Assembly: GCA_963692865.2 (NCBI GenBank)
Contig: OY843592.1
Location: 2,944,001 to 3,008,000, forward strand
DNA length: 64,000 nucleotides
Direction of reading: 5' to 3'
Origin: a bacterium
Lineage (GTDB): Bacteria > UBA8248
Below the pieces are notes generated by a model that saw nothing but the letters and a program-made list of their open reading frames with translations, was not told the DNA's origin and did not search any database. Position numbers and translations under genes: made by a program. Positions 46,444 to 49,309 of this stretch are shown in pieces (the first letter of the stretch is position 1; every line of letters begins with the position of its first letter).

Positions 46444-47184
46444 TCATGGCTGAACGAGCGCTCCCCGCCTCGTGGGGATTTTCGTTTGCTCACTCCCGGC
46501 GAGCGCGCAGACGGGGCAATCCGGATCCCGGGCCACACGTACGCTCCCGGCGGTGTTTTTCCACAAATCGGCCGTCATCAGCCTGTTCGACCAGGCCGGC
46601 TCAAGCCCCCCGAGAACACGCAGCGCATCTGCGGCCTGCGCCATGCCCACGAAACCGGCCACCGCGCCGAAAACGCCCGCATCCCCGCAGTCGAGGCCGC
46701 GCGCGTCAGCGCCCTCCTCGCCCACCAGGCAGCGCAGGCAGGCGCTCTCACAGGGCAGAATCGTCATCACCTGCCCGAAAAAGCGCAAGACGCCTCCCAT
46801 GACCCACGGCGTCCCGGCCGCGATGCAGGCGTCGTTAAGAATGAGCTTGGTCGTCAAATTGTCGCTTCCATCGATCACGACGTCATAAGGCGCGATGATC
46901 CGGGCGACATTCTCGCGCGTGATTTTCTGGGGAATCTTGTCCACCGCTACTTCGGTGGACAGCCTGAATATGGAATCAGCGCCCGAGTCGACTTTTAGAC
47001 GGCCGATGTCTTCGGTTCGATGGAGAATCTGGCGCGCCAGGTTGTCGAGCGTCACGGCGTCGTGATCGGCAAGCCCGATACGCCCCACGCCGGAAGCAGC
47101 CAGCGCCAGCGCCGCGGGGCAGCCCAGGCCGCCGACGCCCACAATGAGTGCGGACGAACGCGCCAGAGCGCTCTCATCACTCAT
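46444..47184 (-). CDS. ThiF/MoeB E1-like adenylyltransferase, catalytic motifs intact, N-terminal RYSR segment missing
   Basis: Starts MSDESAL (AGGAGG RBS, ATGA overlap with the JAB gene); GVGGLG, NLARQ, DGSDN, CLRC, LDC and CPVC. Confidence 0.88.
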   Translation of the reverse strand: MSDESALARSSALIVGVGGLGCPAALALAASGVGRIGLADHDAVTLDNLARQILHRTEDIGRLKVDSGADSIFRLSTEVAVDKIPQKITRENVARIIAPYDVVIDGSDNLTTKLILNDACIAAGTPWVMGGVLRFFGQVMTILPCESACLRCLVGEEGADARGLDCGDAGVFGAVAGFVGMAQAADALRVLGGLEPAWSNRLMTADLWKNTAGSVRVARDPDCPVCALAGSEQTKIPTRRGALVQP

Positions 47185-47675
47185 GCGCCCGCCTCCTCGA
47201 ATATCTCCAGATCGCTTTCGATGAAGGTTTTTTGCTCCGCGTCCCAGGAATACACCTTCTGGCCGATAACGGCGCCTTCGCGCACGCTCATGACGACGTG
47301 CTCGGCATCCGGAAACGCCGGAATATCCCCGAAAGGAACCGCCGCATCCACGTCTTCCTGTGAAAAATAGGCGTCCTCGTCCGGGTGGCTGTGAAAGATG
47401 CCGCGAACCATCTCGCCCGCCTCCTCGGCGCGCCTCACGATGCGCTCGAACTCGAACGGGTCGATCAAAAAGGCGCGCCTCGCCGTCCGGGGATAGATTT
47501 CCGGGTCCTTCTCGTGCATCTCGTTCTGCACGTTCTTGCAGGGCAGAAGAGCGAGGGTTTCTTCCGCGTTCCCTCTCGCGCGCGGAGGCCCGATGATCAA
47601 ACCGCAGCACTCATCGGGATACGCCTCGCGCGCGTGGCGGTGCATCGCTTCCACCTGGTCACGATTCAGACGCAA
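47181..47675 (-). CDS. JAB/JAMM (M67) metallopeptidase, Mec-like
   Basis: YPDECCG and FHSHPD...S..D JAMM motif. Confidence 0.92.
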   Translation of the reverse strand: MRLNRDQVEAMHRHAREAYPDECCGLIIGPPRARGNAEETLALLPCKNVQNEMHEKDPEIYPRTARRAFLIDPFEFERIVRRAEEAGEMVRGIFHSHPDEDAYFSQEDVDAAVPFGDIPAFPDAEHVVMSVREGAVIGQKVYSWDAEQKTFIESDLEIFEEAGA

Positions 47676-47686
47676 ATCAAGTCCCC

Positions 47687-48625
47687 TTAGCGCGCCTCGC
47701 TCAAGTACCTGTCCCCTCCGTCGGGAAACAGGGTGACGATGACGCCCTTTCCTATCTGCTTCGCCACCTCGCGCACGCCAACGAGCGCGGCGCCCGCCGA
47801 GTGGCCGATGAACAGGCCCTCTTCTTTGGCGATGCGATCGGCGAGATCGTAGCTCTCCTCGGTACCCGCCGGGATCAGGTGGTCGTGTACGCTCTCATCG
47901 TAAATCCCCGGGCGTATGGCCGTCGGGATGTGCTTCATTCCTTCCAACCCGTGAAACGATTCTGACGGCATGACCGCATGAACCACGACGTCCGGTTTCC
48001 TTGCTTTCAATCCGCGCCCCGTGCCCACCAGCGTGCCCGTGGTGCCGAGACCCGCGGCGAAGTGCTCCGCGCGCCCGTCGGTCTGTTCCAGAATCTCGAC
48101 CGCCGTCGTCTCGACGTGAGCGAGCGGGTTGGCGGGGTTGTCATACTGGCACGGCAGGAAATACTTCTCCGGCTCCTCGTGGTGCATCTTCGCCGCGAGG
48201 CGCTGCGCCCCGTCCGAACCCTCCAGGGGGTCCGAGAGAATAATGTCGGCCCCATAGCCCTTGAGCGTCGCCTTGCGCTCGTCGCTCGCGTTCGCGGGTA
48301 GCACGAGACGGACGGGAATCCCCAAAGCCGCGCCTATCATGGCGTAGGCGATACCGGTGTTCCCGCTCGTGGAATCAAGCAGAATTTTCCCGGGTCTCAA
48401 TTCTCCCGTTTCCAGTCCGTCCTTCACCATGAAGAGCGCCGGCCTGTCCTTCACCGAGCCGCCCGGGTTGAACCACTCCGCCTTGGCGTAGACCTCCACT
48501 TCCGGGAATTCGCTCTCGAACAACTTGATTTCGAGCAGGGGGGTGTTGCCGATACACTTGATTATCGGGGAATCCCCTAGATTTCTGAACGCGCTCGCGG
48601 GATTCTCCACCGTCGATTCGACCAT
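47687..48625 (-). CDS. cysM: Cysteine synthase B-like (sulfur-carrier-dependent CysM)
   Basis: IGNTPL, NPGGSVKDR, TSGNTG, GLGTTGT and GLEGMKH. Confidence 0.88.
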   Translation of the reverse strand: MVESTVENPASAFRNLGDSPIIKCIGNTPLLEIKLFESEFPEVEVYAKAEWFNPGGSVKDRPALFMVKDGLETGELRPGKILLDSTSGNTGIAYAMIGAALGIPVRLVLPANASDERKATLKGYGADIILSDPLEGSDGAQRLAAKMHHEEPEKYFLPCQYDNPANPLAHVETTAVEILEQTDGRAEHFAAGLGTTGTLVGTGRGLKARKPDVVVHAVMPSESFHGLEGMKHIPTAIRPGIYDESVHDHLIPAGTEESYDLADRIAKEEGLFIGHSAGAALVGVREVAKQIGKGVIVTLFPDGGDRYLSEAR

Positions 48626-48658
48626 TGGTATGGCCCTCGCACTTGGCTCCTGAAAACT

Positions 48659-49309
48659 TCAGGAAAGGTTCGCACGCGCCTCAATCAAGCCATGCGAAAA
48701 ATCGAAACGGGCCTGCGCAGTCGACCCCACCGTATCCGTCTCATCCACCAGATGCCGCAAGACCCGTGCGGCCAGCCATGCGCCCAATGCGCCCCGGGCC
48801 GCCACAGTTGATGCTTCCCCTCCACCAGAGGACGCCCCTGTTTGAGCGAAGGAGCGGGGGCGCTCTGAAATCTCTCCCGCCTCACCACGGGATACGCCTC
48901 GGATGAGGAATTTTCCCGCTCCCTTGAAAGCCTCCAGGTCTCCTGCGGACTCATCGCCCAGCCAGACGAGGACGTCGAAAACCTCTTCCGCACCCTCACC
49001 CGGGCGAACGGGAACCAGCCTCGAATCGGGATTGAGTCTCTTGAGGCCGTTTCCCAGGCAGCCGCCATAGAGAGCGGAGAGCGGCGATTTTTGCCTGATT
49101 CCATCGTCCTCATCGAGCGGACACCAGCCGATTCGTCCCACGCCTGCTGCGGCCAGATACGCCAGGGCCATGAGCGCCGCGCTTTCCTCATCCTCCGAAT
49201 ATGCGATGAGGACGGAAGAAGCCAAAAGACGCTCCTGCCCGGCTCCTCCCACACCGGGGAGCAAAATGTGTCGGCTGTAGCGCTGAATCTGCTCTTCGCT
49301 CAGACCCAA
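48659..49309 (-). CDS. Degenerate ThiF/MoeB-like protein (keeps RYSRHIL; lacks the ATP and Zn motifs)
   Basis: LSEEQIQRYSRHILLPGVGGAGQERLL, YLAAAGVGRI and LNPD present; no GxGxxG after the first strand, NLxRQ, DN or CxxC. Confidence 0.75.
   Translation of the reverse strand: MGLSEEQIQRYSRHILLPGVGGAGQERLLASSVLIAYSEDEESAALMALAYLAAAGVGRIGWCPLDEDDGIRQKSPLSALYGGCLGNGLKRLNPDSRLVPVRPGEGAEEVFDVLVWLGDESAGDLEAFKGAGKFLIRGVSRGEAGEISERPRSFAQTGASSGGGEASTVAARGALGAWLAARVLRHLVDETDTVGSTAQARFDFSHGLIEARANLS

Follow-up and report, generated by a model that had tools for sequence, protein, structure and literature searches.

The DNA analysed here is a 64,000-nucleotide stretch (hereafter the window) of contig OY843592.1 from the bacterial assembly GCA_963692865.2. 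Over 45954-50635 of its minus strand lie seven tightly spaced genes in the order CysK-ThiS/CysO-dE1-CysM-JAB-aE1-Rrf2. This operon brings together a CysO-type gene set, i.e., a ThiS-like Gly-Gly carrier, a JAB peptidase and a CysM-type synthase, and two genes for E1-like proteins. One of these encodes a catalytically complete ThiF/MoeB-type adenylyltransferase (aE1), and the other a degenerate E1-fold protein (dE1); together they are candidates for the two subunits of a heterodimeric E1. They are encoded separately, and CysM and JAB occupy the 1.5 kb that divides them. A preliminary description of this DNA had reported two E1-like genes with mirror-image defects at these places, and Pfam searches, alignments and translations confirmed it.

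Two E1-like genes with complementary motif loss

aE1 matched the Pfam ThiF profile PF00899 with an E-value of 2.2e-63 (214 bits; cut-off 28.1), its residues 6-225 covering profile positions 17-238 of 238. It aligned with residues 24-246 of Escherichia coli ThiF (E 1.6e-41) and with residues 26-248 of MoeB (E 4.4e-39). Since the alignment begins at ThiF 24 and MoeB 26, the first ∼25 canonical residues have no counterpart in aE1. The motifs GVGGLG, NLARQ, DGSDN, CLRC and CPVC are all present, a loop Cys aligned with the ThiF/MoeB loop Cys, and G16, G18, G21, R51, K64 and D108 were invariant among 74 sequences. In the accessible part of PMC12355090, the residues of the E1 ATP site are given as GxGxxG and MoeB R73, K86 and D130. 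The earlier statement that this gene keeps the ATP and zinc motifs and the loop Cys, and lacks the RYSR segment, is thus borne out by the alignment. There is no insert relative to ThiF/MoeB, and a catalytic-cysteine domain and a ubiquitin-fold domain are absent. The genome's sole rhodanese-MoeB protein (399 amino acids, aa), which is complete and has its own RYSRH helix, is encoded outside the operon.

The frame upstream of the aE1 ATG overlaps JAB and contains no RYSR. The motif was likewise absent from the aE1 frame in 20/20 related loci, in five of which the frame is closed at most 8 codons upstream. Among the 120 best database relatives of aE1, the RYxR helix is missing in all 68 that share at least 50% identity. 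The remaining 52 comprise 37 that match the helix pattern, 11 that show a variant in the printed N-termini, and four more distant relatives without the helix (P0337, P0340, P0349 and P0363). Judged by these sequence comparisons, the shortened N-terminus is a trait of the clade and not an annotation slip. A low-complexity stretch of ∼25 residues (MSLHxPRAGLPDEAPPAS...) was seen in frame before the aE1 start in eight loci (L115, L117-L122 and L124); it is conserved where JAB and aE1 do not overlap, lacks RYSR, and is included by some gene callers, which gives proteins of 269-272 aa. Two predicted proteins of 388-393 aa (P0306 and P0327) contain Rrf2 and ThiF Pfam domains together, and probably arose when gene callers fused aE1 with the adjoining regulator.

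dE1 matched no Pfam family at E ≤ 0.01, and in the databases it is named only as a hypothetical protein. Its sequence match to solved E1s is limited to residues 2-64 (against Uba4 residues 4-63, E 4.1e-7; against ThiF, 0.0024; against MoeB, 0.0054). On the NCBIfam MoeB model NF006444, dE1 residues 3-63 correspond to positions 120-177 and aE1 residues 6-228 to positions 144-369. GxGxxG, NLxRQ, DxxDN and CxxC are all absent from dE1, both on reading the sequence and in the family alignment. What it retains is the N-terminal helix: R13 aligns with MoeB Arg14 (dE1 3-66 against MoeB 4-64), R10, Y11, S12 and H14 are kept in 63/63 family members, and R13 is kept in 62/63. It had been stated that this gene keeps the RYSRH segment, has lost every ATP and zinc motif and has an intact frame, and all three points hold.

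In its AlphaFold2 monomer model (predicted local distance difference test, pLDDT, 73; predicted template modelling score, pTM, 0.75), dE1 has the whole E1 fold. Foldseek searches with this model returned ThiF, Uba4 and MoeB at the top, with E-values of 5.5e-9 to 1.5e-7, and the list includes the inactive subunits APPBP1 and SAE1. Full-length relatives range from 100% down to ∼38% identity. Among 1.84 billion representatives, no more than 3 proteins were found at E 1e-30 and 16 at 1e-10. The family has its own C-terminal motif, VGSTxQARFDxSxG, which is disordered in the monomer model (pLDDT ∼40), yet lies inside the modelled interface with aE1 described below. The family alignment contains no invariant Cys that might carry a persulfide. 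A genome scan with patterns taken from the N-terminal helix of the dE1 alignment returned 80 loci, all of them canonical E1s with a G-loop.

The remaining operon genes are listed in Table 1. The CysK-like protein scored 400.5 bits against TIGR01139 (cysK), above the cut-off of 350.95. The CysM-like protein scored 337.8 bits against TIGR01138 (cysM), below the equivalog cut-off of 394.2, and its substrate is therefore not settled. The carrier, which also matches the SAMP1 and MoaD_arch models, ends in ...AIAGGR, that is, in Gly-Gly and one further residue; a tail of GG and 1-2 variable residues was present in 28/29 Nitrospinota operons. The JAB stop codon overlaps the aE1 start codon (ATGA) and GAGGAGG precedes the aE1 ATG, while the start codon of dE1 is a TTG 9-10 nucleotides downstream of GAGAGGAGAG. 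The Rrf2 protein exceeded the cut-off of the rrf2_super model with 126.4 bits. No E2 gene was found among the seven operon genes with Pfam and NCBIfam. Close relatives carry the source names Nitrospinae or Nitrospinota.

Table 1. Coordinates in the window of the operon genes and of motifs in their products
Feature	Position	Strand	Basis
CysK-like cysteine synthase, 319 aa, first operon gene	49676..50635	-	Pfam PALP E 7.8e-77
ThiS/MoaD/CysO-like sulfur-carrier protein, 92 aa	49344..49622	-	Pfam ThiS E 1.5e-17
dE1, degenerate non-catalytic E1-fold protein, 216 aa	48659..49309	-	intact frame; fold and motif comparison
RYSRH arginine-finger motif, dE1 residues 10-14	49268..49282	-	translation
CysM-like pyridoxal phosphate-dependent cysteine synthase, 312 aa	47687..48625	-	Pfam PALP E 2.9e-61
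JAB/MPN metallopeptidase, 164 aa	47181..47675	-	Pfam Prok-JAB E 6.6e-20
aE1, catalytically complete ThiF/MoeB-type adenylyltransferase, 246 aa	46444..47184	-	Pfam and alignments
GVGGLG nucleotide-binding loop, aE1 residues 16-21	47122..47139	-	translation
NLARQ, aE1 residues 48-52	47029..47043	-	translation; R51 = MoeB Arg73 by alignment
Rrf2-family regulator (IscR/CymR-like), 152 aa, at the end of the conserved block	45954..46412	-	Pfam Rrf2 E 4.3e-37

Elsewhere in the window, two adjoining open reading frames at 44107-44790 (plus strand) would become a single 227-aa frame if the TGA at 44377-44379 encoded selenocysteine. The joined frame contains the motif NSCAYU (CxxU), and the Pfam CMD (AhpD-like) domain at residues 63-135 extends across the TGA. 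From its sequence, this is probably an AhpD-like selenoprotein.

Joint inheritance, predicted interface and selection

The distribution of the two genes was surveyed in 51 genomes of the phylum, with a threshold of at least 54% identity for aE1 orthologues. Both genes were found in 29 genomes and neither in 20, which answers the call of the preliminary description for a co-occurrence survey in favor of the pair. Full-length dE1 was present in 30 genomes and aE1 orthologues in 29, where the two always lie on the same contig, 1.5-2.3 kb apart. In the single mismatch, G021, dE1 lies on a contig of 3.2 kb. In a genome from another family of the same order (G009), both genes are present and their contigs are broken. 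There the aE1 is shortened too, and the dE1-like gene, cut by a contig end, retains a GLGGVG loop (L143, G009:C474; L141, G009:C274); this pair may represent an intermediate stage. One further genome (G029), with a contamination estimate of 16%, has two dE1/JAB/aE1 sets on contigs C6 and C8, which may derive from two strains in one bin.

The gene order CysK-ThiS-dE1-CysM-JAB-aE1-Rrf2 was identical in 20/20 fetched loci, and the recurrence of the complementary motif pattern in all of these related loci argues that it is not due to chance. Eight related operons keep CysK-ThiS-CysM-JAB-Rrf2 and have neither of the two E1 genes, which do not lie next to each other. When the gaps were searched (16 gap sequences made up the database behind the E-values), relics of the dE1 C-terminus were detected in G022 (E 1.5e-6) and G034 (0.017), N- and C-terminal pieces of dE1 in G037 (2e-4 and 7e-4), and a relic of the aE1 C-terminus in G010 (2.6e-6). 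The eight E1-less operons are therefore losses and not the ancestral state. In an operon tree built from the five shared proteins by a quick method, the 29 rows comprise 21 with both genes, 8 with neither and none with one alone; five state changes are needed, and starred branches force at least three of these. The pair has accordingly been lost three times or more. The operons without it presumably rely on the complete rhodanese-MoeB enzyme, whose gene lies outside them.

The aE1:dE1 complex was modelled with an alignment of its own for each chain and with ATP. The interface score (interaction prediction score from aligned errors, ipSAE) was 0.92, 0.91 and 0.92 in three runs, compared with 0.00 for the best of three controls. 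The mark attained by the pair was reached by 58/80 solved complexes and by 2/110 mismatched pairs. The runs shared at least 90% of their contacts, and the partner pLDDT was at least 81. The dE1 residues that touch aE1 in the model include 6, 9-14, 16-18 and 20, and the aE1 residues that touch dE1 include 46-47, 49-51, 53 and 56-58, to either side of the phosphate-binding R51. The contact list is given per chain; dE1 9-14 and aE1 49-51 both appear on it, and residue pairs and ATP distances are not part of it. The model thus predicts that the arginine-finger helix of dE1 contributes to the interface.

Selection was estimated as the ratio of nonsynonymous to synonymous substitution rates (dN/dS) over 91 within-genus pairs with a median dS of 0.37-0.72. 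The preliminary description had asked for this measurement on the degenerate gene, and the value of 0.34 overall (range 0.18-0.48) does not correspond to neutral decay. The neighboring genes fell between 0.08 and 0.20 (aE1 0.20, JAB 0.13, Rrf2 0.11, CysM 0.09, CysK 0.08 and ThiS 0.08). dE1 is the fastest-evolving gene of the operon, with 40-86% identity as compared with 73-96% for CysM. Along the protein, dN/dS was 0.09 for residues 1-35, 0.26 for 36-70, 0.48 for 71-165 and 0.30 for 166-216, and it was 0.18 at the predicted interface against 0.40 for the rest. Positions conserved in at least 90% of sequences amounted to 28/58 at the interface and 42/158 elsewhere (Fisher p 0.0025, a rough figure because the sequences are related). 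We conclude that purifying selection acts on dE1 and is concentrated in the helix and at the predicted interface.

A second lineage and the origins of the pairing

Among weaker matches to dE1, 91/145 representatives have the RY helix and no G-loop. One such type of dead E1, of 215-260 aa, constitutes a second and larger family; it comes from Candidatus Binatia and 'Deltaproteobacteria' metagenome-assembled genomes, where it is named either as a hypothetical protein or, as if active, 'ThiF family adenylyltransferase'. In these proteins the RYSRQ helix is retained along with the two CxxC pairs; G-loop, NLxRQ and DxxDN are missing in 107 of its 120 best matches. Loci were drawn from a sample of 151 genomes of the class Binatia. 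In 20 of them (L204-L221, L224 and L225), an active E1 without any RY motif in its open frame is followed by ThiS, in most loci by CysM, and further downstream by the dead E1. Two other loci (L222 and L223) have a complete E1, with its helix 27 residues before the G-loop, next to ThiS and CysM, and neither has a dead E1 within 15 kb. A mixture of the two states was not seen in any locus. From 20 partnered loci, two unpartnered loci with a complete E1 and none mixed, it follows that the rule of a shortened catalytic E1 if and only if a dead E1 with the helix is present holds in two distant groups. The two groups, Nitrospinota and Binatia, differ in gene order and in the degeneration of the partner. 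JAB gave no match in the Binatia loci, and the carrier ends in Gly-Gly in 11/22 of them.

A threshold of E ≤ 1e-35 was too strict: it returned the dead partner in 9/151 Binatia genomes and the shortened E1 (at least 66% identity) in 18. The other nine loci all proved to have the dead partner, although in one of them the match extended over no more than its first 34 residues. A phylum-level search around a Binatia genome gave only canonical matches, 33-39% identical, and the family was found by the class-level search. When the profile of the Binatia-type dead E1 was run on 50 unrelated genomes, it hit canonical E1s at ∼1e-50 and did not discriminate.

Several observations made alongside concern other dead-E1-like sequences. 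A metagenome scan with one Binatia-type protein yielded two contigs, too short to show a partner. One of them carries the C-terminus of a cysteine synthase, a dead-E1-like gene, a 410-aa Cys-rich protein and a transporter; the Cys-rich protein (CxxxxxxxCxxC) is encoded directly after the Binatia-type dead-E1-like gene on a soil metagenome contig (L174, 967-2199, plus strand). Many of the representative proteins P0125-P0265 are ∼110-180 aa long and have an RY(S/A)RH helix and YLAAAGVG at their start and no G-loop, and their sequences look high in G+C. They may represent either fragments or a further, third type of short dead E1.

In a 56-row tree, dE1 forms a long branch (1.81) and groups with 4/6 Binatia-type dead E1s, with a value of 96 in the Shimodaira-Hasegawa-like approximate likelihood ratio test (SH-aLRT); this grouping may reflect long-branch attraction. 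Shortened active E1s were split among separate groups (three changes) in a 60-row tree, none of whose backbone branches is starred. A single clade of the Nitrospinota and Binatia shortened forms was not rejected by the approximately unbiased (AU) test (p 0.287). The trees would be compatible with one origin of the pairing or with several. Loci with complete E1s show related arrangements. In a Thermodesulfobacteriota locus (L005) the order is ThiS-E1(complete)-CysM-JAB, the complete E1 occupying the slot that dE1 has in the window. Two Nitrospirota loci (L029 and L065) have CysK-E1 ... ThiS-E1 with both E1s complete, and in L029 JAB follows the second E1. These loci fit a duplication followed by complementary loss.

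A candidate heterodimeric E1, its alternatives and known systems

Taken from sequence comparison and modelling, it is likely that aE1 and dE1 together constitute a heterodimeric sulfur-carrier E1, with aE1 as the catalytic and dE1 as the pseudo-enzyme subunit. By homology, the operon would produce cysteine by way of a protein thiocarboxylate. The JAB peptidase would trim the residue or residues that follow the Gly-Gly of the carrier, the E1 would adenylate the carrier C-terminus, sulfur would then be added, and the CysM-like enzyme would use the carrier thiocarboxylate. aE1, its own N-terminal helix lost, would bind ATP, zinc and the carrier. dE1, a pseudo-enzyme paralogue, would pair with it through the usual E1 dimer interface and lay its RYSRH helix, with the arginine finger, over the ATP site of aE1. 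Such a dimer would have one active site, as do NAE1-UBA3, SAE1-SAE2 and BilD.

The preliminary description had proposed this heterodimer, with the dead subunit donating the Arg helix. The proposal has gained from the co-loss, the selection on dE1, the model controls and the repeat in Binatia; the need for an Arg in trans has been weakened, and to call the heterodimer obligate goes further than these results. The claim that such an Arg is required conflicts with the accessible part of PMC13139853, in which the MoeB Arg14 and ThiF Arg11 fingers, although provided by the neighboring subunit, are reported to be catalytically non-essential. This is one of several points that weigh against the heterodimer. 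According to the same part of that source, E. coli TcdA has no arginine finger, and one dE1 cluster (1/63) has a His in place of R13. No rhodanese domain that could serve as sulfur donor was detected in aE1 with Pfam, and the aE1 matches in two genomes (G029 and G030) are flagged with one internal TAG. The high score of the complex may reflect memory of, or likeness to, solved MoeB/ThiF homodimers, and its calibration holds only roughly, given that own alignments and ATP were used. Finally, related genomes are not independent samples, and what co-loss shows is that the two genes belong to one functional module, which need not be a physical complex.

Some of these points can be read as evidence for an aE1 homodimer that works without an arginine finger. 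dE1 would then be a non-catalytic accessory, such as a scaffold that binds the carrier or CysM, or a sulfur-donor adaptor that replaces rhodanese. Apart from the reports on MoeB, ThiF and TcdA, it speaks for a homodimer that aE1 keeps all catalytic residues that act in cis, that it lacks the rhodanese domain which the housekeeping E1 has, and that co-loss requires no more than a shared module. We nevertheless consider the homodimer unlikely. The most constrained part of dE1 is precisely the helix that aE1 lacks, a persulfide-carrying adaptor would have no invariant Cys to use, Binatia show the same complementarity with another dead paralogue, and the model places dE1 at the E1 dimer interface. 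It is far less probable still that the partner or regulatory target of dE1 is not aE1 but the housekeeping rhodanese-MoeB protein or another E1. The genome does encode that complete protein, and one dimer interface is common to all E1 folds; however, the housekeeping E1 is present in nearly all 51 genomes while dE1 tracks aE1 alone, and it has a helix of its own. That dE1 is a decaying, functionless duplicate, as its rapid evolution and the dN/dS of its middle part could suggest, is already contradicted by the intact frame in 30 genomes, the constraint overall and at the N-terminus, the conserved C-terminal motif and the fact that truly lost copies are deleted to small relics, and can hardly be maintained.

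If aE1 and dE1 do form a heterodimer in a plain metabolic pathway, this would show that E1 asymmetry can evolve without conjugation machinery. The spread beyond one phylum raises the interest above that of a single locus. We give about even chances to the broader view that two-subunit E1s are an unrecognised, recurrent architecture of bacterial sulfur-carrier pathways, present at least in Nitrospinota and Binatia, which differ in dead paralogue and gene order, and that duplication with complementary degeneration took place more than once, which would be a bacterial replay of the step that gave the inactive/active domain pair of eukaryotic E1s. The small subunits (246 and 216 aa) could be expressed separately, which would permit a direct test of the trans arginine helix and of the contributions of an inactive subunit. 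As to annotation, the dead partners are at present either unnamed, as dE1 is, or misnamed as active enzymes in Binatia.

The closest parallels are found among E1s with divided labor (all papers are cited here for the parts of their text that are accessible). SAE and NAE are heterodimers that carry the inactive domain on one chain (PMC12355090). As in the operon, NAE1(APPBP1)-UBA3 and SAE1-SAE2 consist of two paralogous adenylation-fold chains, one of which does not bind ATP. They have a single active site with an Arg from the inactive subunit (PMC10557695, PMC12355090), as the aE1:dE1 pair would; in human UBA1, Arg57 and Arg515 hold the position of the γ-phosphate (PMC12355090). In contrast to NAE and SAE, aE1 and dE1 have no catalytic-cysteine insert, ubiquitin-fold domain or operon-encoded E2, the substrate here would be a sulfur carrier for cysteine synthesis, aE1 has lost its own N-terminal helix, and dE1 has lost the zinc site too. 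Among bacterial proteins, BilD unites two adenylation domains, one inactive and one active, in a single chain, and the inactive one supplies Arg9 (PMC10557695). It shares with aE1/dE1 the combination of one inactive and one active adenylation unit, and differs in being a single polypeptide with a CYS domain, engaged in E2-linked protein conjugation, whereas here two genes lie in a metabolic operon. Because they lack the Cys domain, the ubiquitin-fold domain and the E2, aE1 and dE1 are not members of the NAE, SAE or BilD families, and the likeness would be at the adenylation step. The prokaryotic parallel to eukaryotic E1 asymmetry drawn in the preliminary description would be a likeness, and not the first of its kind, since BilD precedes it. 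According to the BilD authors, every other bacterial E1-like protein known is a homodimer (PMC10557695), and our literature search, which covered papers outside their supplementary files, yielded no paper on a sulfur-carrier E1 heterodimer encoded by two bacterial genes.

Within the ThiF family, the yeast heterodimer Tcd1-Tcd2 has an arginine finger, Arg59, that Tcd1 contributes to the Tcd2 site (PMC13139853). Like aE1 and dE1, these are paralogues with divided labor, Tcd1 lacking another ATP-binding Arg. They differ in being eukaryotic, in acting on tRNA (ct6A) and in that both subunits bind nucleotide; moreover, a finger mutant kept most of the activity. The E. coli MoeB and ThiF homodimers are symmetric, and Arg14 or Arg11 of the partner completes each of their two active sites, whereas aE1 and dE1 each keep half of the features. 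With respect to gene content, Iyer, Burroughs and Aravind described in 2006 an operon of type 4c with ThiS, E1, JAB and cysteine synthase, the E1 being fused to rhodanese (PMC1779556); their account of this type, in the accessible text, mentions no second dead E1. The Mycobacterium CysO-CysM-Mec system with MoeZ likewise brings together a carrier, a JAB protein, a cysteine synthase and an E1-like enzyme (PMC1779556, PMC3227635). The MoeZ-type E1 is a single rhodanese-fused protein, whereas aE1 is unfused and the rhodanese-MoeB protein is encoded elsewhere in the genome.

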